Positions 4,553 through 28,112 are shown, counted from the first letter of the stretch. The stretch: 64,000 nt of DNA from an uncultured Candidatus Sumerlaeota bacterium (GCA_964389675.1 CAYMEV010000003.1:65109-129108); one strand, 5' to 3'. The notes: a model not told the origin generated them from the sequence alone. Made by a program: numbers and translations.

Positions 4553-7500
4553 ATGAAAAAGATTGAAGAAATCATCAGGAACAGATACTTAATATTTGAC
4601 GGAGCGATGGGGACAAGCCTCCAGAAGATGGATATGGCAGGGCTTGATTTCAGGAATAAGAAGAAGATGAATGAGCTGTTAAACATCTATTATCCTGAAT
4701 ATGTAAGCGCTGTCCACAGAGGGTTCATAGAAGCAGGGGCAGATATTATCGAAACAAATACATTTTCAGCGAGTGCAACAGTACTGAGCCGTTACGGTTT
4801 TTCTGAATTGACATGCCAGATAAACAGGGAGGCGGTAAGAATAGCCATAGAGTCTGCAAACAGCTATGACAGGGATATTTATGTAGCAGGGTCAGTAGGC
4901 CCTACTGACAAGCTTCCTTCATTAGGGCAGATAAGCTTTGATGATATGGTTGAGGGATACCAGCCCCAGATGGAGGGACTGATTTCTGGACGAGCTGATA
5001 TCGTTATTCTGGAGACCTTTCAGGATCCTCTCGGCATAAAAGCTGCCCTGAAAGCCCTTGAAAGATCTGCAAAAAAACACAATCATTTTCCTTATATAAT
5101 GGTATCAGTTACCTTTTCCGAAAATGGAAATATGCTCCTTGGGACCACCCCTGAAGCTGTGCTTTATATTCTTGAGCCATATGATCTGTTCTCGGTCGGC
5201 ATTAACTGCTCTCTGGGGCCATCCGGTCTTAGAAAGCCTCTTGAGGTATTTGCACGGCATTATAATGGATACATATCATTTATGCCTAATGCAGGGTTGC
5301 CTAAAAAAGAGAATCAGATACTCCACTATGACCTTAAAGCGGATGATTTTGCTCAAATAATGTCACAGTATGCCTCTGAACTTGGCATAGATATTATCGG
5401 AGGATGCTGCGGCACGGACAGTGAATATATAAGAAAGCTGAAAGAAGCATCAGAATCACTTGAGAAGAAGAGCAGGGAAATAGAACCATACAGCGGTGTT
5501 GCAAGCCTTTATAAAGGCTTTGAATATAAGCAGACCCCTGCCCCTTTTATAATCGGTGAAAGGACAAACATGGCAGGAAGCAGGAAGTTCTCAGCATTAG
5601 CCAGGGAAGGCGATATTGAAAAAACTGCAATGTTTTGCAGAGATTATTCTCTTTCAGGCATGCACGGGATAGACCTATTCCTGAAAAAAGGCGGTAATAT
5701 TGACGACGAATATACTGTTGATCTGGTCAGGAGGCTTTCATTACTGCTTAATGTTGCATTATGCTTTGACTCAAAAGACATAGGGCTTATTGAAAAAATA
5801 TTAAAGCATTATCCCGGAAGGATGATAATCAATTCTGCAAGCCTTAAGGACGGGGAGAAAAAGCTTCTGGAATATCTCAGGATTACCCGGATATACGGTG
5901 CCTCCATTGTTCTGCTTGCTATCGATGAAAAGGGGATGGCGGTAGGCCAGGGCGAAAAGATAAAAATTTTCAGGAGGATCCTGGAGTGTGCAAAAGAGTC
6001 AGGACTGAAAGACTCACAGATCATCCTGGACCCCCTCACTTTCAGCATAGTAAGCGGTGACAGGCAGTATGCTGATTCTGCCAGTGAATCCCTGAAAACA
6101 CTTAGGGAGATAAAAAGGCTTTTTCCAAGCATATCAACAGTTATGGGTGTATCAAATATCAGTTACGGAGTAAAAGGAGATCTAAGAAGGCTTATAAACA
6201 GCGTTTTTCTCTATGAGGCAGTAAGAAACGGACTTGATATGGCCATCATAAATGCCGGGGATATTCTTCCCATGAATCGGATAGATAAAGATATGGCTGA
6301 CTCTATAAAGGATCTTATACTTAACAGGAATAATGAGGGAAGTGAAATATTAAAAAGGCTTCTGAGCCTGACCTATCATTCAGCGGATATTACTGAAAAG
6401 GCATATGCATCCCCTGCTGACAGAATTAAAGCAGATATTATAAATGGAAATCAGCTGTATATAAAAGATCAGATATCTGACCTGTTGAGATCAGGCGAAA
6501 AGCCGGATTTTATTATTGAAAAAATCCTGCTTGAAGCGATCAGCGAAGTAGGAAGGCTGTTCAAAGAGGGTTATATCCCACTGCCCTTTGTCCTCCAGTC
6601 TGCCCGGGTGATGAAGGATGCATTCTCAGCAATTGCTGAAAAAATGCCCATAAATAATTCAAAAAAAGAAAAAAAGCTTATACTTGCCACGGTAAAAGGC
6701 GATATACATGATATTGGCAAGAACCTTGTTGACATAATAGTATCATCCCATGGTTATAATGTGGTCAACCTGGGCGTTGAGGTCGATATTAAAGATATTA
6801 TTGATACTGTAAGGAATAATGATAACTGTTATCTGGGTTTATCCGGGCTTATAAATGAATCCCTTGATGTAATGGAGGATTATGCTGCTAAACTGGTGAA
6901 AGCAGATGTGGATATTCCAGTGATATTTGGAGGGGCTGCAGTTTCAGAAGGATTTGTCAGGAATGTCCTTAGAAAAATATACAAAAGGGCTTTATATGGT
7001 AAGGACGCTTTTGATGCAGTCAGCATGCTGGAGGGGAAAAAGGGCAGAGATGCAATTGCCGGTATTCAATCAAATAAGCAGGATAAGGTTAAAAAACGTG
7101 GAGAAAAGGCAATAGAAAGAAAAAATACTGATTTAGTGTTCCGGGATAAAGACACTGTTCATTCCTTTCAGCTGGGCCTGAGTGATATAGTTCCGGGGAT
7201 GGATATAAAGAGGCTTTTCAGGGTCAGATGGACATATAAAATCAAAGAGGGGAGCGGTAAAATGCCTGATCTTAAGGAACTGAAAAGCAGGATGGATACA
7301 ATGCTGGATAAATTATATGAATCAAAAGCGGTCGCTCCTGCTGCAAATTACTGTTATGCAAGCGTTATAAGGGAAAAAAACAGGCTGCATATTCTAAAGA
7401 ATGGAAAATTTATGGATTTTCAGAGGGATGGATTTTCCTTTATTGATTATTTTCATGAAAAGAAGGAGGATACCATTATATTCTTTGCTGCAACAGCAGG

Positions 7501-7858
7501 TGAAAAAGCATGGACTGTTAAAAATTCCCTCCTTGACAGGGGTAACTATGCCGGGTACCATCTTATGAACGGGCTGATAAACGAGATTTTGGAGACATTC
7601 CTGAATCTTTTATCTAAACATATAGAAAATGAATGCGGCCTTTACAGGATAGAGGGCATCAAGCCTCTCAGGCTCGCATACGGTTATCCATACTGTCCCA
7701 GGCTGAGAGAGCAGGAGAAGGTATATGGCCTTCTTGATCTTGAAAGAATGGGCCTCAGGTTTACTGAACTTTATCAGATTATTCCGGAAGAAAGCTCTTC
7801 CGGCTTTATACTGCCTTTTGTGGCTCATAATAAATCTAAAACAGGAGGGCTGAAATGA
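4553..7858 (+). CDS. metH: Cobalamin-dependent methionine synthase
   Basis: Homocysteine S-methyltransferase domain at the N-terminus, a pterin-binding domain, the B12-binding DIHDIGKN (DxHxxG) motif with GGAAVS, and a C-terminal AdoMet reactivation domain. 1101 aa. Confidence 0.9.
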   Translation: MKKIEEIIRNRYLIFDGAMGTSLQKMDMAGLDFRNKKKMNELLNIYYPEYVSAVHRGFIEAGADIIETNTFSASATVLSRYGFSELTCQINREAVRIAIESANSYDRDIYVAGSVGPTDKLPSLGQISFDDMVEGYQPQMEGLISGRADIVILETFQDPLGIKAALKALERSAKKHNHFPYIMVSVTFSENGNMLLGTTPEAVLYILEPYDLFSVGINCSLGPSGLRKPLEVFARHYNGYISFMPNAGLPKKENQILHYDLKADDFAQIMSQYASELGIDIIGGCCGTDSEYIRKLKEASESLEKKSREIEPYSGVASLYKGFEYKQTPAPFIIGERTNMAGSRKFSALAREGDIEKTAMFCRDYSLSGMHGIDLFLKKGGNIDDEYTVDLVRRLSLLLNVALCFDSKDIGLIEKILKHYPGRMIINSASLKDGEKKLLEYLRITRIYGASIVLLAIDEKGMAVGQGEKIKIFRRILECAKESGLKDSQIILDPLTFSIVSGDRQYADSASESLKTLREIKRLFPSISTVMGVSNISYGVKGDLRRLINSVFLYEAVRNGLDMAIINAGDILPMNRIDKDMADSIKDLILNRNNEGSEILKRLLSLTYHSADITEKAYASPADRIKADIINGNQLYIKDQISDLLRSGEKPDFIIEKILLEAISEVGRLFKEGYIPLPFVLQSARVMKDAFSAIAEKMPINNSKKEKKLILATVKGDIHDIGKNLVDIIVSSHGYNVVNLGVEVDIKDIIDTVRNNDNCYLGLSGLINESLDVMEDYAAKLVKADVDIPVIFGGAAVSEGFVRNVLRKIYKRALYGKDAFDAVSMLEGKKGRDAIAGIQSNKQDKVKKRGEKAIERKNTDLVFRDKDTVHSFQLGLSDIVPGMDIKRLFRVRWTYKIKEGSGKMPDLKELKSRMDTMLDKLYESKAVAPAANYCYASVIREKNRLHILKNGKFMDFQRDGFSFIDYFHEKKEDTIIFFAATAGEKAWTVKNSLLDRGNYAGYHLMNGLINEILETFLNLLSKHIENECGLYRIEGIKPLRLAYGYPYCPRLREQEKVYGLLDLERMGLRFTELYQIIPEESSSGFILPFVAHNKSKTGGLK

Positions 7859-8684: not shown

Positions 8685-9257
8685 TTAAAATTTCCTGTAG
8701 TACTTTCTTAATATTACATAAACTGCTTCATCAGAGAAGCCTTTGCCTTCGACATAAACATATTCTCTGAGTATGCCTTCAAGCTTCATTGCAAATTTTT
8801 CTGCAATTGCCACTGAACCGGTGTTTTTTGGATTGCACCTCAGTTCACAGCGGTTAATGTCAAAATTCTCAAAGGCAAAATTAATAATGGGTGCAGTGAT
8901 TTCAGATGCAATTCCACGGCCCCAAAGCTTTCTATTAATATCAGCTCCAAGTTCAATCCTTCTGTTCTTTGGATGCCAGTTGTGCAAAGCAGCAGTGCCA
9001 ATAAGCGTGCGAGGCTCATCCCTGTTCACTACAGCCCAGCGGATGGATATTTTGTTCCGGAAATTATCGTTCCAGCTGTTTATTAGCTCTTTGCACTCTT
9101 GTACTGTTTTTGCAGGCATTCTTTCCATGTAAAGCATGCTGGCTGGATCGCCATAGATCTCAAACAGGTCTTCAGCAAATGAGATTTCAGGCCTGATAAG
9201 CAAAAACCGCTTTGTACTGATCACTGGGAATTTCCTGAAAATTTCCGGGTTAATCAT
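8685..9257 (-). CDS. GNAT family N-acetyltransferase (RimJ/RimL-like)
   Basis: GNAT acetyl-CoA-binding core: IGTAALHNWHPKNRRIELGADINRKLWGRGIASE. Confidence 0.7.
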   Translation of the reverse strand: MINPEIFRKFPVISTKRFLLIRPEISFAEDLFEIYGDPASMLYMERMPAKTVQECKELINSWNDNFRNKISIRWAVVNRDEPRTLIGTAALHNWHPKNRRIELGADINRKLWGRGIASEITAPIINFAFENFDINRCELRCNPKNTGSVAIAEKFAMKLEGILREYVYVEGKGFSDEAVYVILRKYYRKF

Positions 9258-9370
9258 TTACCTGCCTTATATAAAACCTGCTTAAGGTGTATTTTCTGAT
9301 TTATCGGTGAAAAAAAGCGAAGCAGAAATAAATCTGCTTCGCTTATGCTTATCCTGATAATGATTATTTA

Positions 9371-10831
9371 TTAAAAGTAATAGGTAAATCCGGCAAGAAT
9401 TATATGCTGGTTGTCAAACTCACGGTTTCCGCCGAATGGTATGCGCAGTTCAGCAAAGACTGTGCCCTTGTCCTGTATGACATCATATCCAAGTGTTACA
9501 ATTGCATCCATTCCGTCTTCCATGGGATCTCCATGCAGTACATCCAGGCTTTCCCTTTCCAGGTATTCAAGGTATTTCGTTGAATACCCGAGGCCTGCAC
9601 CTATAAAGAATTTATTGAAGTTCAGGTTCAGTGTAGCCCCTGCCATAAAGAAATTCTTAAATTTATCACTGTCGCAAAGGCCTGCGCCAACAGTTGCCTT
9701 TATGTCAAGTTTACGCGGAACAATGCGGTAAAGCAGACCAAAGCGGGCTGATGTGTAATAATGGTAAGTCCCGTAGGCAAGAGTGGGAGCAAGTTCTGCA
9801 AACCAGAGAAGGCGAGGCCTTACCTTTACAAGGACATTGCATGTATCAGATGTAGCATTGAAATCATCTGTGACAACCAGGTATATATTATAAAGCGATG
9901 GTTTGTCAAAGACTGGCTCCATTATATATGGTTCGCTGGTCAGTTTTTCCGTCATTACAAGGTTTTCATCCTCGTCAAAGAACTCAAAATTCAATTCAGT
10001 GAGGGTTCCGTCAACATCTCTGGAGCCTGATGCGTCCAGTACAAGCTTTTCTCCAAGGATTATCTCATCAGCAGATGCTTTCAGGTCACATACAGGTGGA
10101 TAATTTACATAAACCTTTGCTTCACATTCGCCTTCAACAGGCCAGGTATCAATTCCCCTGACCGTGGTTCTGAATGTATAATGGCCCGGTATGTCAAAGC
10201 TGGTCTCCATGACAGGGTTGTCTACCGAAAGATCCTTGCTTTCAAGCTCTATGCCCTCTTCATTAACTATCTTTACATGAATTTCACTTGCATTCTGGGT
10301 GTCGTTCATGTCAGCAACGACCTTATCATTAATGTTTACCTTCTGGGGAGTAACTGTAATCCCGCATACAAGGCGTGGAAGGTCCTCTGATTTATAAAAG
10401 GACAGGTTGCCGCATTTTTTGGGTACTATAAAATGATAGACAGTGCCCTCCTTTGTAATGGAAAAGGCAAAAACATCAAGGGGCTTTTTACCCATCCACT
10501 GGCCGTTTTCTATCAGCGAAAGCTTATTGCGTTTCTTGTAGATCATCCATGGTATAATTTCTCCGACCTGAAGCTCCCGTGCTTCTATCTCAGCCTCTCC
10601 AAACTGTTGCAGAAATGTCTCTACAAGGTCAGCATGACCGGCCATCTCGAGAGCTTCCCGCAATTCGACAGGGGATTTCTTAAAAGCTTCCCTCATCTGT
10701 TCAGGATCCTGGAACCCACCCTTAAATAATGGATTATCTCCGACCCTGGTGATCTCAACAGCATCCTGGGCATAGCAGAAGACGCTCAAGGCCAGGACTA
10801 GAAAAAGTGTATACACTATTCTGAGTTTCAT
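9371..10831 (-). CDS. Secreted or outer-membrane protein with a PKD-like domain and a C-terminal beta-barrel
   Basis: Signal peptide MKLRIVYTLFLVLALSVFCYAQ. A PKD-like DASGSRDVDGT segment. The C-terminal region alternates hydrophobic residues and ends in ...GFTYYF, a terminal Phe typical of proteins handled by the BAM outer-membrane insertion machinery. Confidence 0.5.
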   Translation of the reverse strand: MKLRIVYTLFLVLALSVFCYAQDAVEITRVGDNPLFKGGFQDPEQMREAFKKSPVELREALEMAGHADLVETFLQQFGEAEIEARELQVGEIIPWMIYKKRNKLSLIENGQWMGKKPLDVFAFSITKEGTVYHFIVPKKCGNLSFYKSEDLPRLVCGITVTPQKVNINDKVVADMNDTQNASEIHVKIVNEEGIELESKDLSVDNPVMETSFDIPGHYTFRTTVRGIDTWPVEGECEAKVYVNYPPVCDLKASADEIILGEKLVLDASGSRDVDGTLTELNFEFFDEDENLVMTEKLTSEPYIMEPVFDKPSLYNIYLVVTDDFNATSDTCNVLVKVRPRLLWFAELAPTLAYGTYHYYTSARFGLLYRIVPRKLDIKATVGAGLCDSDKFKNFFMAGATLNLNFNKFFIGAGLGYSTKYLEYLERESLDVLHGDPMEDGMDAIVTLGYDVIQDKGTVFAELRIPFGGNREFDNQHIILAGFTYYF

Positions 10832-14989: not shown

Positions 14990-15167
14990 AAAATTGCTCC
15001 TTTTATATAATTATAAAACGATTTAATTACTCTGGTTTTAATATAAATAAGTTTTGTTAAATCTATAAATAATTCTTGATGTTTTGTCAAAATTATTTTA
15101 CTTTAGGAGGCATTAATATCTTTAATATCTTGAAACTAACTGGAACTGGACCTCAGATGGCTATATT

Positions 15168-17168
15168 ATGAGTATTGTATTAATATTCCCTCCGACATGG
15201 GATGTCAGCCTGCCATACCTTTCTCTGCCATGCCTTTCAGCATACCTGAAAAAACTTGGGGTTGAAGTATGTTCCATTGATGCAAATATAGAATCCTTTT
15301 ATTTTCTTCTGGAAACGTCTAACCTGGAAGAAGTGAAGGAATATATAACCGGAAAGATCAGAAACCCGCTGGATAAAAAGCATGAGGTCTTCATAAGGAG
15401 AGCCCTTGCAACATGTGATTTTATCATTGAAAAAAAGGATGAAGCTCTTGATTTCTTCAGGATCCCGGAAAACCTCAATAATTATCAGGGGCTCCTGTGG
15501 GCCAGCGATATCATTGAACAGACAATGGACCTCTATACGGCAAGGTATTACCCTATGTATTTCACCCTGTACGGGATTATAAACATGGTGAAAAAGTTTA
15601 ATCCTGATGAGATCATTGACTTTGCTGAAAACCCTTCCTATCCACTGGCAGTGTTCTACCGGGACAGGCTTCTGCCCCGGATAGAGGCTGAAAAGCCATC
15701 AATTGTGGGCTTTTCCGCTATATCAAGGGACCAGATGCTGCATTCCGTCTATCTTGCAAATCTGATAAAGGGGCATTTTCCTGAAATCCATACCACTATC
15801 GGGGGTTGTTTTATCAATGTGATCTCAGAGAAGATAAAAAGGGATTTCTATCCTCTGGGCAAGTATTTTGATACTGTTATCTTCGGCCAGGGCGAGATTC
15901 CGCTCTATAATCTGTACAGAATTATAAATGAAAAGAGTGATTATGAGAAAGACAGGAGAAATATACTCTCTCTCAGCGGGAAAGAAACTCCCATGAAGCA
16001 CTGCAATCTTTCATCCGAATATAAGGATTTTCCAGTCCCTGACTTCAGCGATTTTCCACTTGATAAATATATCTCAAATGACATTATGCTTCCATATCAG
16101 ATGGCAAGCGGCTGTTATTATGGCAAATGTGCTTTTTGCAACAGCAAAAGCGCAACAGTGCCGGATTATACTGCCAAGAATCCATCGAAGGTATACCAGG
16201 ACCTTAAGGAACTGCAGAGCAGGTATAACTGCAGTATATTTCATATTAACGATGAAGCCCTGAACATCAATCTCTTCAGCAGTATTGCCGGGGACCTGTC
16301 AGGCCTTGGCCTGACTGTCTTTACTCAGGCACGTTTTGAGAAAGGGCTTGACAAGGAAAAACTGCTGAAACTTAAAAAGGCCGGAATAAAGAAGATAGCA
16401 TTCGGGTTTGAATCTGGGAATGAACGGGTGCTTGGCCTGATGGAAAAGGGTTATGACCTGAAAGATGCAGGGATCATACTTGAAAACTGCCATAGACTGG
16501 GAATAGAAGTCCATCTCTTTGGGATTATAGCCTTCCCTGGTGAAACAGATAAGGAAAGGGAAGACACTGTAAAATTTGTCAAGAATCTTTCATCTTATAG
16601 AAAATCTCTTATGTTCGGTTATTTTTTCCATACATTTCTAATGGAGTACAATTCAAAGGTCTACAGGAACCCTTCTGATTATGGCATAGCGGAGATAATT
16701 GACAGGGAAAAGTTTAATTTTTATGCTGATTACCGCCTGAAGGATGAAAAAGAGATAATTGACGGCGAGACATTTCTTGAAATTAGGGATAAAATCCATA
16801 AGGAACTCTACGACAGCAAACCGGTGTCATGCAGGACACCATTTTTCAGTGATATTGTCTATCTGCATCACTTTGAACGAAGGCAGTATACCGATATCAT
16901 TGGTAATAATGAAATGCCCTATGAAAAGAGGTTCATAACAAAGACAGTAATATCCGGAAAGGATGGGAATGCTCAGGACTACATATTCGATCTGCAGAAT
17001 AAGAACCTGTTTTCCGTTGACAGAACTATGCAGGATATTTTCAATGCCTTGTTAAAAAATAGTTCCGGGGATCTGTCTTTTATAGCTCAGGAACTGGGTA
17101 TTCCTAAAATAATAGTAAAGCAGAAGATCCGTGATCACGGCTTTGAGTTTCTGTTTGAAAAAGCCTGA
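15168..17168 (+). CDS. B12-binding radical SAM protein (class B) with a C-terminal extension
   Basis: N-terminal B12-binding-like segments (IVLIFPP...LPYLSLPCLSAYLKKLGVEVCSID and IVGFSAIS...TTIGGCF). A radical SAM cysteine cluster C-YYGK-C-AF-C, which is CX4CX2C rather than the usual CX3CX2C. The C-terminal about 90 aa are PqqD-like (FDLQNKNLFSVDRTMQDIFNALLKNSSGDLSFIAQELGIP). 666 aa. Confidence 0.8.
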   Translation: MSIVLIFPPTWDVSLPYLSLPCLSAYLKKLGVEVCSIDANIESFYFLLETSNLEEVKEYITGKIRNPLDKKHEVFIRRALATCDFIIEKKDEALDFFRIPENLNNYQGLLWASDIIEQTMDLYTARYYPMYFTLYGIINMVKKFNPDEIIDFAENPSYPLAVFYRDRLLPRIEAEKPSIVGFSAISRDQMLHSVYLANLIKGHFPEIHTTIGGCFINVISEKIKRDFYPLGKYFDTVIFGQGEIPLYNLYRIINEKSDYEKDRRNILSLSGKETPMKHCNLSSEYKDFPVPDFSDFPLDKYISNDIMLPYQMASGCYYGKCAFCNSKSATVPDYTAKNPSKVYQDLKELQSRYNCSIFHINDEALNINLFSSIAGDLSGLGLTVFTQARFEKGLDKEKLLKLKKAGIKKIAFGFESGNERVLGLMEKGYDLKDAGIILENCHRLGIEVHLFGIIAFPGETDKEREDTVKFVKNLSSYRKSLMFGYFFHTFLMEYNSKVYRNPSDYGIAEIIDREKFNFYADYRLKDEKEIIDGETFLEIRDKIHKELYDSKPVSCRTPFFSDIVYLHHFERRQYTDIIGNNEMPYEKRFITKTVISGKDGNAQDYIFDLQNKNLFSVDRTMQDIFNALLKNSSGDLSFIAQELGIPKIIVKQKIRDHGFEFLFEKA

Positions 17169-17232
17169 ATTATTAGATAATGATGAATATTAAAAGAGGA
17201 TATAGAATTATGAGGGGAATGAGCAGAAGAAA

Positions 17233-17817
17233 ATGAAATGCCCTGAATGCAGTGCGCAGATATATATTCATCCTTCTGCCCTTATGGCATACTGTGAATC
17301 ATGCAGCAGCATTATTGCAAATGATGGCAAGCTGATGGCTGGCCAGAAACTGGCCCATATTGCAAAGACCCCGACCCGGTTTTTAATTGGAAGAAAGATC
17401 AGCATTGATGGCATCATCTATGATATTTGCGGCTGTTCGAGGTTTGGGCATAAGCTTGGATTCTGGGATGAATGGCATCTGTTATCCGGTGATTCAGACC
17501 CCTCCCTGATAATAGAGAATGAGGGCCTGCATGTCATTTGCAGGAAAACAGAGGTTCTGCCTTTATTTAAATTTCAGCCTGTGAATAGATATGAAAGGGC
17601 AAATCTGGCAGGCTACGATACATTTGTCCAGGAGGCCGGCAAAGCAGTACTGATCGGTATGAAGGGCAATATTTTTGAAAAACTGCTGCCGGTATCTGAA
17701 TTTTATTTTATAAAAGGGCTGAGCGGTGATAAAGTAATCAATATGTCATTCTTTGATGACAGGACTGCTGTCAAGGAAGGCAGTCCCCTGAAGTATGACC
17801 AGATAAAAATAGAATAA
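17233..17817 (+). CDS. Zinc-ribbon protein, DUF4178-like
   Basis: N-terminal CPEC...CESC zinc ribbon. Paralog of the ORF at 18186. Found in a DUF350 context. Confidence 0.35.
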   Translation: MKCPECSAQIYIHPSALMAYCESCSSIIANDGKLMAGQKLAHIAKTPTRFLIGRKISIDGIIYDICGCSRFGHKLGFWDEWHLLSGDSDPSLIIENEGLHVICRKTEVLPLFKFQPVNRYERANLAGYDTFVQEAGKAVLIGMKGNIFEKLLPVSEFYFIKGLSGDKVINMSFFDDRTAVKEGSPLKYDQIKIE

Positions 17818-17833
17818 TGAAGGAGGAGCTATT

Positions 17834-18175
17834 ATGAAAAAATATGCTGCATATTTTCTGATCTTGCTTTTTATGTTTTTCAGCTTCAGTAATCTTTTAT
17901 TTGCCGAGAACGGCGGCAGGGATATCGGCAGTATGATACAGAGGGCTGACAGGAACAGGTCTAATCTTTCATCATTTATAAGGGAACTTGTTTCAAGCAT
18001 GATCTTCGGCCTGATAGGAATTCTTCTTGCTATCATAGGGTATAAGCTGTTTGACATAGTAACACCCTTTTCCCTGGCAAAAGAACTTGCTGAAGACCAG
18101 AATATTGCTGTTGGAATAGTTGTCGGAGCGATAATTATAGGTATCTCAATAATAGTATCAAAAGCGATCATTTAG
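17834..18175 (+). CDS. DUF350 family small membrane protein
   Basis: Signal or TM segment, then the DUF350-like pattern GLIGILLAIIGYKLFDIVTPFSLAKELAEDQNIAVGIVVGAIIIGISIIV. RBS ggagg upstream. Confidence 0.5.
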   Translation: MKKYAAYFLILLFMFFSFSNLLFAENGGRDIGSMIQRADRNRSNLSSFIRELVSSMIFGLIGILLAIIGYKLFDIVTPFSLAKELAEDQNIAVGIVVGAIIIGISIIVSKAII

Positions 18176-18185
18176 AAAAAACCTG

Positions 18186-18830
18186 ATGATGCCTGTTTTA
18201 GAAAATGTCGTCTGCACGGTATGCGGAGCTTATAATAAGCTGTGCAATCCCAGGTCCATGTCTGTTGTCTGCCGCAGCTGCAGGTCTCTTATCGACCTTA
18301 AAGGCGATGCCTGTCAGATTATTGGAAGATTCCCCGGGCATTTCCATAAACTGCCCCTTCATACAGGCTGGGAAGGAGTATATGCCGGGGAGAGCGTAAA
18401 GGTGGCAGGCAGGCTCAGATATGTTCTTGGCCTTAAGAAAAGAGATGATTATTATATCCTTTCTGAAGGGGGAAGGAACCTTCTGCTCATGGCCTGCGAC
18501 GGCAAACCGGCTTTCTATGAATTAATCATGCCGATTGAGGCCATAGATCCGTATGATATAAAGAAAAGTCTTGTGATTGATAATAAAGAACAGGCCATAA
18601 TTTCCAGCGGGATGGGAAGAATAGTACAGGCTGACGGTGAGGTCATCTGGAAAATAAGCAGGAATGATTACCTGGGATGGGTAGAGACAGCTGACTATGC
18701 GATCAGGTTCAGCAGGTATAATGTACGATACTATCGGTGCCTTGGCAGGAGCTGGATCGGTATCAGGGACATATTCGGCAGCCTTGACAGGACACCATAT
18801 ACTGAAGTATTTCTCAAAAGTGGCCTTTAA
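18186..18830 (+). CDS. Zinc-ribbon protein, DUF4178-like (paralog of 17233)
   Basis: N-terminal CTVC...CRSC zinc ribbon. Shares the downstream architecture of 17233, including the LSEGGRNLLLMACDG segment versus IENEGLHVICRK. Confidence 0.35.
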   Translation: MMPVLENVVCTVCGAYNKLCNPRSMSVVCRSCRSLIDLKGDACQIIGRFPGHFHKLPLHTGWEGVYAGESVKVAGRLRYVLGLKKRDDYYILSEGGRNLLLMACDGKPAFYELIMPIEAIDPYDIKKSLVIDNKEQAIISSGMGRIVQADGEVIWKISRNDYLGWVETADYAIRFSRYNVRYYRCLGRSWIGIRDIFGSLDRTPYTEVFLKSGL

Positions 18831-18983
18831 CAGCAATTCTGAAATGGGCAGGGGCATGTGCAGGGTATTATAATAAAACTTTGCCGGGAAAACTGGAAAT
18901 ATGGTTTTCTTACACAGGGTTCTCTGCAGGGGTATAAAAAAATTGTTAATCAGTAACAGATATGATACCATTGATCAGCTGAA

Positions 18984-19967
18984 ATGAAAGAGTCAAAAAA
19001 ACCTGACAAGAAGAAACTGCTTAAAGAGCTGGTCGAGACCAATATAGAGAACAGGAAATCCCCCAAAAGAAAAGGCATGTACCGAAGGCAATCCTCCTCC
19101 GGAGTTATTACTGATACCCTGAACATAGAATCATTTATCATTTCCTTTTTCATAATACTGCTTCTGGGAGTTTTCCTCTACAACTCGAACATTTTCCCTG
19201 AAAGGACTGAATCTGAGAATGACCTTTACAGATTTAACGCTGATATTGTCAGAAAAAACCATGAGCAGTTTACTATCAGTGACCTGTTTAAATTCGGTGT
19301 TTCAACAATAATCATAGACCCTGGCCATGGGGGCAGGGATCCGGGGACTGTCTCATCCTCCGGCCTGCAGGAAAAGGATATAGTGCTTGACATTGCTCTA
19401 TACCTCAAAGAAATACTGATTAAAAATACCCCTTTTAATATAATCATGACAAGGGATTCTGATGAAACATTAAGCCTGAGCAAAAGAGCGGCAATTGCAA
19501 ATTCTGCCAACGGCGACCTTTTCATATCAATTCATCTGAATTATTCTTCCTATACATGGTTTTCAGGCATAGAAACCTATGTTCTTGGAATTGCGGATGA
19601 TACGGATGCATTGGAAACAGCATCCCTTGAGAACTTTTCCGAAAATCTGACGGTATCCGAGATGAATGATATTCTGGAAAGGATAAAAAAGGATTTCATA
19701 TCCCAGGAGAGCAGCAGGTTTGCAGGTTTTATGCAGAAAAACCTTGTAGAATCACTTAAAAGCTATAATAATAAGCTTAAGAACATAGGAGTTAAAAAGG
19801 CCCCTTTTGTTGTCCTTGCAAAGGTAAAGATGCCCAGTTCGCTGATCGAAGTTGCGTTTTTATCAAGCAAAAAGGATGAGAAGCTCCTGAAAGACCCTTT
19901 ATATCTCAGAGATATTGCAGAGGGGATATACAGGGGTATTATTGAGTATCTGGAAAATGAGGATTAA
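18984..19967 (+). CDS. N-acetylmuramoyl-L-alanine amidase (Amidase_3, AmiC-like), membrane anchored
   Basis: N-terminal TM segment, then the Amidase_3 core IIIDPGHGGRDPGT...DLFISIHLN. Confidence 0.85.
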   Translation: MKESKKPDKKKLLKELVETNIENRKSPKRKGMYRRQSSSGVITDTLNIESFIISFFIILLLGVFLYNSNIFPERTESENDLYRFNADIVRKNHEQFTISDLFKFGVSTIIIDPGHGGRDPGTVSSSGLQEKDIVLDIALYLKEILIKNTPFNIIMTRDSDETLSLSKRAAIANSANGDLFISIHLNYSSYTWFSGIETYVLGIADDTDALETASLENFSENLTVSEMNDILERIKKDFISQESSRFAGFMQKNLVESLKSYNNKLKNIGVKKAPFVVLAKVKMPSSLIEVAFLSSKKDEKLLKDPLYLRDIAEGIYRGIIEYLENED

Positions 19968-20038: not shown

Positions 20039-21106
20039 ATGACCGATTCTAAAAACAGCAGTACCAAGAAGAAATCGCCTGAAACTCTCGATACAGTCTT
20101 TATTGGTATCGACCTGGGGACATCAAGAAGCGCTATTGTCACTAACAGCGGTTCCCAGCAATGGGTAAGGTCTATTATAGGCTGGCCGAAGGATTTTGTA
20201 TCAAAGAAGCTTCTTAAAAAACCTGTCCTTATAGGTGATGAGGTTTTTGAACATAAGCTTGCCCTTGATATTTACAGACCCCTTGAGAGAGGTATTATAA
20301 AAACAGGCAGTGATAAAAGCGAGGAATCTGCATTATTACTGGTAAAACATCTTGTCAGCAGCGGCCTTGAAGCCATCAAGGAATATCAAAAAGCCTTTGC
20401 AGTAGTAGGAGTACCTTCAATGGCTTCAGAAGCCAACAGGGACTCGATAAAGCACTCACTCAAAGGACTCGTGAACGGCCTTATGATCGTAACTGAGCCT
20501 TTTGCTGTTGCATACAATGAAGACAGCCTGTCAAACAGCATCATAATAGATATCGGGGCCGGAACATGTGATTTCTGCATTATGCATGGTACCATTCCCG
20601 GAGATGATGATCAGGTAACCATCTATGAAGCTGGCGATTATATTGATGACCAGCTTTTTGACAGCCTTCTGGAAACATATCCGGAAGCACAGTTCACCAA
20701 GCACATGGCAACAATGTGGAAGGAAAAATACTCTTTTGTAGGAGACCCTCCAGAGCCAGTAAAGGTAACAATGCCGGTAAAAGGAAAACCTGTGACTTTT
20801 GACATCACCGATAATATAAGAAAATCCTGTGAATCCATAGTACCGTCCATAGTGGAAGTAATAAAAGACCTTATTGCGAATTTTGACCCTGAATTCCAGG
20901 AGGAAGCCAGAAATAATATTATAATTGCAGGGGGATGCAGTTCTATACGGGGATTACCGGAATACATAGAGGACAATCTGAGTGAGATTGGCGGTGCCAA
21001 GGTCAGGACAGTAAAGGACCCTCTTTACTGCGGTGCCACGGGAGCCCGTATGATAGCAGAGGATACCCCTATGGAAGACTGGGCAAAGCTTGCAAAATCA
21101 AAATGA
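20039..21106 (+). CDS. MamK-family actin-like ATPase
   Basis: Recalled sequence similarity along the whole length to Magnetospirillum MamK: GIDLGTSRSAIV, GWPKDF...GDEVFE...DIYRPLERGII, IIIDIGAGTCDF, KEKYSFVGDP, AGGCSSIRGLPEYIEDNL and VKDPLYCGATGA. Confidence 0.75.
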   Translation: MTDSKNSSTKKKSPETLDTVFIGIDLGTSRSAIVTNSGSQQWVRSIIGWPKDFVSKKLLKKPVLIGDEVFEHKLALDIYRPLERGIIKTGSDKSEESALLLVKHLVSSGLEAIKEYQKAFAVVGVPSMASEANRDSIKHSLKGLVNGLMIVTEPFAVAYNEDSLSNSIIIDIGAGTCDFCIMHGTIPGDDDQVTIYEAGDYIDDQLFDSLLETYPEAQFTKHMATMWKEKYSFVGDPPEPVKVTMPVKGKPVTFDITDNIRKSCESIVPSIVEVIKDLIANFDPEFQEEARNNIIIAGGCSSIRGLPEYIEDNLSEIGGAKVRTVKDPLYCGATGARMIAEDTPMEDWAKLAKSK

Positions 21107-25987: not shown

Positions 25988-27067
25988 ATGGCCATTGTAA
26001 ATGCATTAAAATTTGATAGATCTTCTGTCGGGATCATTGCTGATGAAGAATACTGGTTTCTTGGAAGGAGGAAAAGCTATTTCCAGGATACACTTCAGCA
26101 TCTTACAGACGAAGAAATAATAGAGAAAACGGGTATTGTAGCCGTTTATGGGGGAACAGGCACCCCTTCATTTCATTGGGATATTATCAAAAAAAGCAGG
26201 GCAAAGATAAAGGAGGAATTCTCAAACAGAGCTAAAAATATCAAGACCATATATGATATCAGCAAAATTGTTCTTGATGTTCTGCAGGATGTAAAAAGAG
26301 ATAGAATAAACCAGAAACTGAGATTTATGTACGGCTTTACGATTGATGATATAAACAGGGGGTTTTTTGAATTTGAGGGTAAAAAATACGATATAAAGCA
26401 AAAAAAGATAAAGGATAAATCACTGGGACTGGTCATGGGAAGCGATAAATCTCACCTTACCAAGCCCATACTTGAGAACAAGGCGGTAATATGCGGTTAT
26501 GACCAGAAGGACGGCATATCAATGTACTACCTGAACTCTGAAAACTCTGTTATGTCATTTACTTCCGGGGGATACGAAGCTATCGGTCCTGGCAAATATG
26601 CATCAGGCCTTGCATTTGCGGAATTTTTCCAGGGAATGCCGTTATATAAGAGAAGAGAGGGGTTTTCAAGGATAGAGGGGATGATACAGCTGATAAATTC
26701 GGCTATCATGGCTGCTGACTATTATAATGAAGTTGGCGGGCTTTTTAATATAATATTCATTGATGGAGAAAAGAAAAATCCCAAAGAAAGGGTTATAGAA
26801 GTCTTTGATAATAAAGGCAAACTTGCAAGCGAGATAGTGAGAAGCTTTAAATGGGGCATGATAACAAAGGAAGAGACTGCAAAATTTATCGATGAGCTGA
26901 TATTTAAGCAGTCTTCTGTAGATGCCCTTGAGGATAAACTTTATAAAGCATCAAAGGATCCAGAAAAGCTTGAACTTCTTTTAAGGGGATACAAGGAAAT
27001 GGAGCTTTGCGAACAGGCCAGCGGGAAGCAGACAAAAGAAAAATCAAAGAAGGCAAAAGGAGAGTAG
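25988..27067 (+). CDS. Hypothetical protein with an HslV/proteasome-beta-like (Ntn hydrolase) N-terminal region; Ala2 in place of the nucleophile
   Basis: MAIVNALKFDRSSVGIIADEEY resembles TTIVGVKYDGGVVLAADTR. VAVYGGTGTPSF resembles the HslV segment VIAGFAGGTADAF. AIGPGKYASGLAFAEF resembles AIGSGGPYAQAAARAL. Tandem paralog of 27069. Confidence 0.3.
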   Translation: MAIVNALKFDRSSVGIIADEEYWFLGRRKSYFQDTLQHLTDEEIIEKTGIVAVYGGTGTPSFHWDIIKKSRAKIKEEFSNRAKNIKTIYDISKIVLDVLQDVKRDRINQKLRFMYGFTIDDINRGFFEFEGKKYDIKQKKIKDKSLGLVMGSDKSHLTKPILENKAVICGYDQKDGISMYYLNSENSVMSFTSGGYEAIGPGKYASGLAFAEFFQGMPLYKRREGFSRIEGMIQLINSAIMAADYYNEVGGLFNIIFIDGEKKNPKERVIEVFDNKGKLASEIVRSFKWGMITKEETAKFIDELIFKQSSVDALEDKLYKASKDPEKLELLLRGYKEMELCEQASGKQTKEKSKKAKGE

Positions 27068-27068
27068 T

Positions 27069-28112
27069 ATGACATCAATTAATGCTATGAAGTTTAATGA
27101 AAAGCAAGGTATATTGATCTGTGACGAATCACGAGGCTGGAATCCGGAAGCAATGAAGCTTCAGACCTCTGATAAGATAAAACCTGTCGTTGAACCTGAG
27201 ATTACCAAAGATACCGGACTGGTAGCCTATTATGGAAATACCGGGACCTCATCAATAGGGGACGAGCTTAAATTCTCAATAAAGCAGGCAATCTCAAAAA
27301 GATTTGAGGAAGAAACCTCAAAAAGGCTGTCATTGCCTAAGGATTTTCTTACCATAGAGCAGATAGCCTCTCTTGCATATGATATACAGATTAATATGAA
27401 AAGGGAGCACATTGATGAGACGCTTCTCGGAAGATACGGCTTTTCCGCAAAGGATTTTATCTCAGGGGGATACACCAGGGATGGCCAGAAGATAGAAATA
27501 AAATCAGAAGAGATAATAAATACGGTTGCTGATGATTTAATATGGAACGGGAGAAAGGGCGAGCCGACCCCCATATTTCTTAATGCAGGGATTATTGCAG
27601 GCTATGAGCCTAAAGAGGGGTTCCGCATCTTCCATCTAAGCCTGATCGATTTCAGCTGTGAGCCCGTCCAGGAGCTCTTTTTAGGAGATGGATCGGGAAG
27701 GGATATGACCACAGTGGTATTTACTGAGCACTCCAATAAAAAGACTGTTCCTGAAAAGAGAGGAAATATTGATGTCACAGAGGGGCTTTTTATTGCTATT
27801 AAAGCAGTAAATGCAGCAGCAAGGCATGACCTGGGTGTCGGAGGTCAGTTTTCAATAATGTATATTGACGGAAATCAGAAAGACAATCTCAAAAAGACAA
27901 AAGAAATGTCAGATATGAGGATTAAACTTCTTTCAGAACTTGTTGAGGCAAATTATTATGAGGTCGTCAACAGGGATGTCTGTTACTTTGCCATAGAAAA
28001 GATAATACTTGAAGATCAGGACTTCTATACAACCTATGAGCAGGTAAAGGGCAAAATAAAGGATTTCAGGAAGTTTTCAAGATTCCTCAGAGGCTACAAG
28101 TTTAAGATGTAA
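27069..28112 (+). CDS. Hypothetical HslV/proteasome-beta-like protein retaining Thr2 (possible N-terminal nucleophile)
   Basis: MTSINAMKFNEKQGILICDES resembles MTTIVSVRRNGHVVIAGDG. Also carries the VAYYGNTGTSSI motif. Paralog of 25988, separated from it by 1 nt. Confidence 0.3.
   Translation: MTSINAMKFNEKQGILICDESRGWNPEAMKLQTSDKIKPVVEPEITKDTGLVAYYGNTGTSSIGDELKFSIKQAISKRFEEETSKRLSLPKDFLTIEQIASLAYDIQINMKREHIDETLLGRYGFSAKDFISGGYTRDGQKIEIKSEEIINTVADDLIWNGRKGEPTPIFLNAGIIAGYEPKEGFRIFHLSLIDFSCEPVQELFLGDGSGRDMTTVVFTEHSNKKTVPEKRGNIDVTEGLFIAIKAVNAAARHDLGVGGQFSIMYIDGNQKDNLKKTKEMSDMRIKLLSELVEANYYEVVNRDVCYFAIEKIILEDQDFYTTYEQVKGKIKDFRKFSRFLRGYKFKM

Follow-up and report, generated by a model that had tools for sequence, protein, structure and literature searches.

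A B12-domain radical SAM enzyme and a DUF4178/DUF350/DUF4178 triad side by side in a Candidatus Sumerlaeota genome: a lineage-specific arrangement

When a radical S-adenosylmethionine (SAM) enzyme is encoded directly in front of a membrane-associated gene module, does it act on that module, or are the two simply neighbors? This question is raised by positions 15,168 to 18,830 of a 64,000-nucleotide stretch of DNA from an uncultured Candidatus Sumerlaeota bacterium (GCA_964389675.1 CAYMEV010000003.1:65109-129108; the whole stretch is referred to as the window hereafter). Here, the gene for a 666-aa B12-domain radical SAM protein is followed by the genes for a zinc-ribbon DUF4178 protein (protein a, DUF4178a), a DUF350 membrane protein, and a second zinc-ribbon DUF4178 protein (protein b, DUF4178b), which we call the triad. 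A preliminary description of the locus suggested that the enzyme might modify one of the triad proteins rather than a peptide. Our analysis indicates that the radical SAM gene and the triad are neighbors in a single lineage only and do not form a general partnership, and a working link between them is unproven. The chances seem to us about even that the locus consists of two neighboring independent units: an orphan class-B radical SAM enzyme with a degenerate recognition element (RRE) of the kind found in enzymes for ribosomally synthesized and post-translationally modified peptides (RiPPs), and a reduced DUF4178/DUF350 module. The features of the locus, numbered from the first letter of the window, are as follows.

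15063-15100, no strand: promoter-like 38-nt conserved block CTATAAATAATTCTTGATGTTTTGTCAAAATTATTTTA (conservation across relatives)
15168-17168, + strand: class-B-type (B12-domain) radical SAM enzyme, 666 aa (Pfam, AlphaFold, Foldseek)
16113-16139, + strand: CX4CX2C [4Fe-4S]/SAM cluster motif, C316, C321, and C324 (alignments)
16920-17165, + strand: C-terminal RRE-like (degenerate PqqD-like) winged-helix domain, residues ~585-666 (fold and position)
17233-17817, + strand: zinc-ribbon and DUF4178 protein a, 194 aa (PF13785 below threshold, and homology)
17834-18175, + strand: DUF350 (YjfL-type) membrane protein, 113 aa (PF03994)
18186-18830, + strand: zinc-ribbon and DUF4178 protein b, 214 aa, paralogue of a (homology to the b protein of locus L088)
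18984-19967, + strand: N-acetylmuramoyl-L-alanine amidase, Amidase_3 (PF01520, 177.8 bits)
20039-21106, + strand: MamK-family actin-like protein, the final co-oriented gene of the string (NF040964)

The occurrence of the enzyme and the triad was compared in both directions. In 80 loci of the radical SAM clade, screened with up to 10 kb on each side, the hidden Markov models (HMMs) of DUF350, DUF4178a/b, and SpeE found nothing (0/80 distant loci), and no module genes adjoin those homologues with a PqqD domain that were inspected. In the reverse direction, the radical SAM HMM matched only L088 and L089 among the 55 metagenome loci that had been collected by a DUF350 profile search, and the long contigs among them (L090, L102, L110, L135, and L136) also lack the radical SAM gene. 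Within the lineage of the window, the radical SAM proteins of L001, L002, the P0004 genome, and L088 are, respectively, 64%, 51%, 48%, and 35% identical to that of the window. The genomes of this lineage share a block of 12-13 genes, composed of four oxaloacetate-decarboxylase-type (OAD) genes, the radical SAM gene, the triad, SpeE (L088 only), the amidase, MamK, BirA, and NadC, while the flanks outside this block differ. Because the syntenic block includes unrelated housekeeping genes, the adjacency by itself is uninformative. Thus, the co-occurrence of homologues with DUF350/DUF4178 is complete in the orthologue group (5/5), where it is inseparable from the synteny of the block, but is absent at the 80 loci outside that group, and the proposal of a triad protein as the substrate of the enzyme is left unsupported.

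In one member of the lineage, the P0004 genome, the gap between the radical SAM gene and DUF4178a is ~240 nt, as joined from the 3′ end of L004 and the 5′ start of L086, two contigs of related samples with a 20-nt overlap. The spacer holds an inverted repeat, GCCTTCGCAAAAAG ... CTTTTTGCGAAGCC, which probably caused the assembly break; it may be a small inserted element or a terminator.

The four open reading frames (ORFs) from the radical SAM gene to DUF4178b lie on the + strand at the positions given in the preliminary description. The gaps given there for a/DUF350 (16 nt) and DUF350/b (10 nt) are also right, but the radical SAM/a gap is 64 nt, not 65 nt. These ORFs are genuine genes, not chance ORFs, because all four are conserved, with orthologues of 35-64% identity in at least five independent metagenome-derived assemblies, and the structure model is confident. 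A 141-aa antisense ORF (17746-18171, − strand) covers the whole DUF350 gene, and simple longest-ORF calling picked it over DUF350; since the DUF350 frame is the conserved one, the antisense ORF is almost certainly spurious. The terminator scan detected no terminator-like site between the radical SAM gene and the triad genes. An Rfam scan of the entire 64-kb window gave zero matches, and therefore no cobalamin or SAM riboswitch; PADLOC assigned neither the radical SAM enzyme nor the triad to a defense system.

What kind of enzyme heads the gene string? The 666-aa protein passes the radical SAM model PF04055 (61.8 bits; gathering threshold, 29.5) and, marginally, the B12-binding model PF02310 (35.2 bits; cutoff, 32.1). 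It is composed of an N-terminal Rossmann-like domain with a helical insert of ~125 aa, a radical SAM barrel, and a C-terminal domain, and the full-length AlphaFold model, based on 55 sequences, has a predicted local distance difference test score (pLDDT) of 89.3 and a predicted template-modeling score (pTM) of 0.89. A sequence search of the PDB with the full-length protein gave no match, and in a Foldseek search of solved structures OxsB (5ul4) was the best match (E = 7e-14), followed by TsrM, MgmA, CysS, and AprD4. The cluster motif reads C316-YYGK-C321-AF-C324, which departs from the canonical CX3CX2C. With these results, the preliminary identification as a B12-domain radical SAM protein carrying a CX4CX2C motif is borne out. 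The same description called the cysteine spacing unusual, which does not hold: C316, C321, and C324 are the sole invariant cysteines in alignments of 18 and of 55 sequences, down to 23-28% identity, and the pattern CY[WY][GTN][RK]CxFC occurs in at least 587 relatives in species-representative genomes, so the spacing is an invariant trait of a clade that extends across hundreds of species. Among the pattern matches listed are Nitrospira, Nitrospina, anammox Brocadiales, Planctomycetota, Myxococcota, Chloroflexota, and Methanoperedens. The presence of only three invariant cysteines also means that there is no auxiliary-cluster domain. A precedent for the spacing is OxsB, a solved class-B enzyme that also has CX4CX2C (PMC9204698), and RadicalSAM.org contains a CX4CX2C group, Megacluster-4-11 (PMC9477430).

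The best NCBIfam match of the enzyme is TIGR03975, which is not passed (127.7 bits against a cutoff of 281.85; residues 166-513; E = 5e-37) and which leads PhpK (70.3 bits) by ~57 bits. For 9 of 10 further clade members, too, TIGR03975 is the top-ranking family, and the scores of the orthologues and these ten members (118-154 bits) all fall below the cutoff. Since all of the clade members tested are below it, the CX4CX2C class-B clade has no curated family model; as far as we found, it has no characterized member either. The window also encodes the cobalamin-dependent MetH (4553-7858), and the organism therefore uses B12. As judged from its domain match, the 666-aa enzyme presumably binds cobalamin.

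In most members of the clade (590-635 aa; Nitrospira, Nitrospina, and anammox bacteria), the C-terminal domain is missing altogether, and the genes occur singly or in tandem. The gene contexts across the wider clade are heterogeneous and not of the RiPP kind; conserved partners were sought there, and none was informative for the 666-aa protein. The nearest non-orthologous homologue, P0005, likewise lies in an unrelated gene context. Some of these contexts are worth recording in themselves. In Nitrospira/Nitrospirales (L010, L014, L017, L023, and others), CX4CX2C radical SAM genes form a conserved tandem pair (~632 and ~653 aa), which is followed by a 412-aa CX3CX2C protein without a Pfam match, a PhzF-family protein, and proteins of ~343 aa and ~144 aa, all making up a conserved cluster. 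At the Nitrospina loci, the neighbors of the radical SAM gene are TPR, methyltransferase, NHL, and Lcl genes.

The C-terminal domain, which had been described as PqqD-like, has to be judged by three kinds of evidence. One is the sequence models: at E ≤ 10, PF05402 matched neither the C-terminus of the window protein nor any of five orthologue C-termini, while it matched 6 of 6 archaeal-type homologues. When the profile of the C-terminal domain was run exhaustively against 1.84 billion proteins, the matches were its own cluster, generic helix-turn-helix (HTH)-repeat proteins, and one Rho_N protein, with no PqqD evidence. Another is position and descent. The homologues P0006-P0009, P0015, P0025, and P0027 (711-729 aa; 28-30% identity) carry PqqD domains that score 26-40 bits with PF05402, and in the full-length alignment these true PqqD domains fall on the last ~80 residues of the window protein; an hhalign comparison of the two sets of C-terminal profiles gave E = 5e-4 with a probability of 32%. 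In a rough neighbor-joining tree of the catalytic core, the C-terminally extended members take basal positions, and this placement fits an ancestral extension that may have been lost in the compact groups of 590-635 aa. The last is the fold. In the full-length model, three strands (589-596, 601-608, and 613-617) are followed by three helices (619-631, 636-643, and 647-656) with a pLDDT of about 88-96, and the AlphaFold model of the isolated domain (pLDDT 90.9) gives the same order. The top seven Foldseek matches of the isolated domain in the PDB were all RREs (TbiB1 with its leader, CteB, and lasso B1), all of them weak (E = 0.05-0.3; template-modeling [TM] score, 0.37-0.49). Accordingly the PqqD-like label stands as to fold and position and falls as to the sequence model, and we regard the domain as a putative, diverged RRE-type winged helix, identified by topology, position, and descent. 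The existence of PqqD/RRE domains in some members of the clade suggests peptide or protein substrates.

Beside the PqqD-bearing homologue in the Methanoperedens and Dehalococcoidales loci, a gene for a ~220-aa hydrolase-like protein of the haloacid dehalogenase (HAD) type was also seen (L075, 8867-9532; L009, 5801-6460), the HAD-type call being made from the N-terminal motif xAVIFDMDG alone.

The absence of a small precursor ORF from the flanks, as noticed in the preliminary description, was confirmed: intergenic ORFs of 20-110 aa in both gaps and in ~10 kb around them were compared with the orthologous loci, and none was conserved as a protein. Two candidates were considered and rejected. The conservation of a 31-aa ORF (15076-15171) extends no further than that of the promoter DNA, beyond which the ORF diverges, and the 15-nt gap of L002 leaves no room for an equivalent of the 18-aa ORF that lies within the 64-nt gap of the window. 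No obvious precursor-like ORF was found beside the PqqD-bearing homologues inspected, and neither a protease, transporter, or cyclase gene nor another RiPP gene occurs near the radical SAM gene.

The 31-aa ORF overlaps the block CTATAAATAATTCTTGATGTTTTGTCAAAATTATTTTA (15063-15100), which sits in the 178-nt gap between a four-gene OAD operon on the opposite (−) strand and the radical SAM gene (+). The window, L001, and L002 share this block without a single difference, and it is recognizable in L003 and L088, while the rest of the divergent intergenic DNA differs. Within it, hexamers resembling −35 elements overlap: TTGACA on the − strand and TTGATG/TTGTCA on the + strand. The block probably serves the OAD operon and the gene string headed by the radical SAM gene as an overlapping pair of divergent promoters or as an operator.

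The other half of the locus is the triad. The DUF350 protein passes PF03994 (50.3 bits; threshold, 26). Its sequence predicts a signal-peptide-like N-terminus and two transmembrane helices around a near-invariant loop, TPFSLAKELAEDQN; residues 59-103 are invariant in three orthologues, and the loop is kept over 18 homologues. The flanking proteins are less readily assigned: with PF13785, protein a scores below the threshold (14.5 bits against 25; E = 0.041), and protein b has no match. Protein b is, however, 39% identical (E = 1e-50) to the 268-aa b protein of L088, which itself scores 55.1 bits on PF13785, and is orthologous to a 310-aa protein of L090 (E = 3e-12); protein a is 27% identical (E = 1e-20) to a PF13785-bearing protein of L090. 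Orthologues of protein a occur in L001, L002, L086, L088, and the radical-SAM-free L090, while a word-indexed homologue search with DUF4178a returned the query itself only. It is by this transitive homology, and not by a direct match, that both proteins are placed in DUF4178. They are paralogues of each other (BLASTP, E = 0.003; HMM cross-matches, 2.4e-7 and 9e-6), and the N-terminal CxxC...CxxC ribbons (residues 3-6 and 21-24 in a) are kept in all of the orthologues of both, so that a paralogous zinc-ribbon DUF4178 pair around DUF350, as first described, is what the locus holds. The b-type proteins of L002 (3731-4429), L088 (8347-9153), and L090 (8329-9261) end in a transmembrane helix, and in L088 and L090 a Gly/Ser-rich tail, e.g., GGGISGGSYSGGRSSFGSSFGGK, comes after it; those of the window and L001 stop short of the transmembrane/Gly-Ser tail.

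The pairing of DUF350 with DUF4178 is recurrent, as the preliminary description had it; the literature and our metagenome DUF350 scan agree on this. A comparative-genomics study of the phage-shock-protein (PSP) system described operons of a spermine/spermidine-synthase-like protein fused to seven transmembrane helices, YjfL (DUF350), and the beta-rich DUF4178, with PspA, Band-7, or polyamine enzymes as operon partners, and predicted the DUF4178 proteins to be intracellular (PMC11237479). Among the 55 metagenome loci, at least 25 have a SpeE-like gene beside DUF350 (nearly always directly downstream) and/or DUF4178 upstream. In L088, the more distant member of the lineage, a 529-aa transmembrane SpeE-like protein is encoded directly after b (9095-10684; PF01564, 122.4 bits), and a membrane-fused spermine-synthase-like gene also follows DUF4178b in L091 and L092. 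A tblastn search of the full 64-kb window found no SpeE-like gene. The gene is likewise missing at the loci of L001, L002, and L086, and the window keeps a gap of 153 nt there (18831-18983); it looks as if the gene was cleanly lost within the sub-lineage of the window. L090, which has no radical SAM gene, carries Band-7/SHOCT, TPR, a-type DUF4178, K+ channel, DUF350, and b-type DUF4178 genes. In L136 (5065-13644), an extracytoplasmic-function (ECF) sigma factor, a 782-aa protein with a C-terminal S-adenosylmethionine (AdoMet)-decarboxylase domain, a 538-aa double DUF4178 protein, DUF350, a transmembrane SpeE-like protein, and a flavin amine oxidase are encoded. The 538-aa protein unites two zinc-ribbon DUF4178 units in one chain, which suggests that a and b function together.

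Downstream of the triad, an Amidase_3 gene and then a MamK-like gene follow in every relative (e.g., L088, 10703-12746; L002, 4426-6538). The amidase start overlaps the end of b in L002, and MamK overlaps the amidase by 11 nt in L088. The amidase is probably in the same transcription unit as the triad, and from these overlaps the unit may run from the radical SAM gene to MamK. The MamK-like protein just passes NF040964 (407.7 bits; cutoff, 400) and has 59-89% identity in the relatives; no magnetosome genes are evident in this neighborhood, which is where they were looked for. Farther away, two adjacent paralogues (25988-27067, 359 aa; 27069-28112, 347 aa) have no Pfam match, and the pair is kept in L001, L002, and L086.

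If the locus is read as two independent units, the following scheme can be proposed. The enzyme would bind a SAM-cleaving [4Fe-4S] cluster through its OxsB-like CX4CX2C motif, its C-terminal RRE-like domain would dock a peptide or an exposed stretch of a protein, and the enzyme would then modify it by radical chemistry, most likely through the B12-dependent methylation of an unactivated carbon; the substrate would be encoded elsewhere or be unrecognizable at the locus. The triad is the core of a known and widespread membrane-associated module, which is normally continued by a membrane-fused spermidine-synthase-like protein and, in some lineages, is partnered by AdoMet decarboxylase, amine oxidase, Band-7, or PspA; in the sub-lineage of the window, the SpeE-like gene would have disappeared from the locus. 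Since a and b occur fused in one polypeptide elsewhere, the two DUF4178 paralogues, predicted to be cytoplasmic, probably work together on the cytoplasmic loop of DUF350.

Several facts weigh against this scheme, and the first of them concern the linkage. The radical SAM gene lies directly upstream of, and co-oriented with, the triad in 5 of 5 lineage members, even at 35% identity, and the gaps are short in four of them (64, 58, 15, and 65 nt) with no terminator-like site. Such an invariant tight arrangement fits an operon and could reflect a real coupling. Many contigs in the DUF350 scan, moreover, are too short to show an upstream radical SAM gene. As to the enzyme, no substrate gene was identified for it, its C-terminal domain matches no PqqD sequence model, and the last two helices of this domain (ELGIPKIIVKQKIRDHGF) look like an ordinary HTH in sequence. 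Finally, AprD4, one of the structural neighbors, is a B12-domain enzyme that is not known to use cobalamin.

The linkage facts are at the same time the ground for an alternative in which the enzyme is a lineage-specific component of the module, its RRE-like domain docking DUF4178a, DUF4178b, or the pre-export N-terminus of DUF350, which it then modifies. Class-B enzymes such as Mmp10 and MgmA modify a full-size protein, and MgmA is among the structural matches of the window enzyme; the tight co-oriented order persists in all five lineage members without a terminator-like site between the genes, and no peptide precursor lies near them. In L136, the slot directly upstream of DUF4178 is taken by another SAM-using domain, that of AdoMet decarboxylase, so this slot accepts partners with SAM chemistry. 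Nevertheless, the module is widespread without the enzyme and the clade of the enzyme is widespread without the module, the conserved order is shared by housekeeping genes, the P0004 genome has a gap of ~240 nt with an inverted repeat, and to our knowledge no RRE recognizes a folded zinc-ribbon protein. This alternative, which has the adjacency as its sole support, we consider unlikely. A narrower form, in which a class-B enzyme was recruited as the first gene of the module and its degenerate RRE docks a module protein for a post-translational modification such as methylation, appears more doubtful still.

The remaining alternatives leave the triad aside. The enzyme may be a RiPP maturase, namely a class-B C-methyltransferase of the TIGR03975/PoyC type, whose precursor gene lies elsewhere in the genome. 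TIGR03975 is indeed the best curated match, ranking first in 9 of 10 further clade members as well, the C-terminal fold is RRE-like, and there are homologues that carry PF05402 and are annotated as a "PqqD family peptide modification chaperone". All of the TIGR03975 scores, however, are far under the cutoff, no precursor-like ORF occurs within ~10 kb or beside the PqqD-bearing homologues inspected, no protease, transporter, or cyclase is near, and the gene is situated in a conserved housekeeping-like block instead of a variable biosynthetic island. We consider a maturase of this type unlikely. Alternatively, the substrate may be a small molecule or a lipid, as it is for OxsB, HpnJ/HpnR, BchE, PhpK, and ladderane-type enzymes, and the C-terminal winged helix would then be structural, oligomerizing, or DNA-binding. 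Most clade members, in their heterogeneous non-RiPP contexts, lack the C-terminal domain, and OxsB, a small-molecule enzyme with CX4CX2C, is the nearest solved structure; the HTH resemblance of the C-terminal helices and the lack of a PqqD model match are also in favor of this reading. On the other hand, three strands followed by three helices is the order of RREs and not that of Fis- or MarR-type DNA-binding domains, the domain finds its best structural matches in RREs complexed with leader peptides, and homologues have a true PqqD domain at the same position. We consider an enzyme of this sort rather improbable.

Part of what the locus displays is already on record: the motif, the enzyme class, the PqqD-fused relatives, and the DUF350/DUF4178 module. 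The new points are modest, namely a divergent orthologue group with a putative degenerate RRE, its lineage-specific place at the head of the module, and the pairing and fusion of DUF4178 a and b. Should enzyme and triad prove independent, the main gain is that a large CX4CX2C class-B clade, spanning hundreds of species and without a characterized member, is now recorded, and that the a/b pairing, fused elsewhere, should be useful for reconstituting the SpeE-like/DUF350 module. If the enzyme did act on the module, it would provide a first enzymatic handle on, and an experimental entry to, a widespread envelope-associated system; if its RRE docked on a module protein, this would add a new case in which an RRE brings a radical SAM enzyme to a full-size protein.

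How, then, does the locus compare with known systems? With the module of the PSP study (PMC11237479), it has in common that DUF350 adjoins DUF4178, and L088 has the SpeE-like gene in the expected place. It differs as follows: no SpeE-like gene is detected by tblastn in the 64 kb of the window; PspA, a CesT-like chaperone, and a lipoprotein gene are absent from the annotated neighborhood, the part of the window screened for them; DUF4178 is present as two separate zinc-ribbon paralogues, one on either side of DUF350; and a radical SAM gene is added upstream and amidase and MamK-like genes downstream.

The enzyme shares with OxsB (PDB 5UL4), its best Foldseek match, the architecture of a B12-type Rossmann domain and a radical SAM barrel as well as the CX4CX2C motif. 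The two are only 13% identical; the substrate of OxsB is a nucleotide, its C-terminus carries no RRE-like domain, and the helical insert of ~125 aa in the B12-type domain belongs to the window enzyme. The B12 domain and radical SAM core are also those of TIGR03975 (rSAM_ocin_1, RiPP C-methyltransferases), and both enzymes plausibly act on peptides, while the window enzyme scores below the cutoff and lacks an adjacent leader-peptide gene. The PqqD-fused homologues (e.g., of Methanoperedens/Methanosarcinales) are 28-30% identical over ~80% of the length, share the CX4CX2C motif, and have a C-terminal domain where the window enzyme has its own. They pass PF05402, which the window C-terminus does not, and have no DUF350 or DUF4178 linkage; compared with theirs, the domain of the window enzyme has a second helix shorter by 4 residues and an HTH-like signature, ELGIPKxxVKxKIxxxGF. 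As for the solved RREs of TbiB1 (5V1U/5V1V), CteB (5WHY), and lasso B1 (6JX3), no sequence model connects them with this domain and the similarity is not significant alone (E = 0.05-0.3; TM score, 0.37-0.49), but the same three-stranded sheet leads into three helices, with a Foldseek probability of up to 0.91; the RRE precedes the catalytic domain in CteB, whereas the RRE-like domain of the window enzyme follows it at the C-terminal side.

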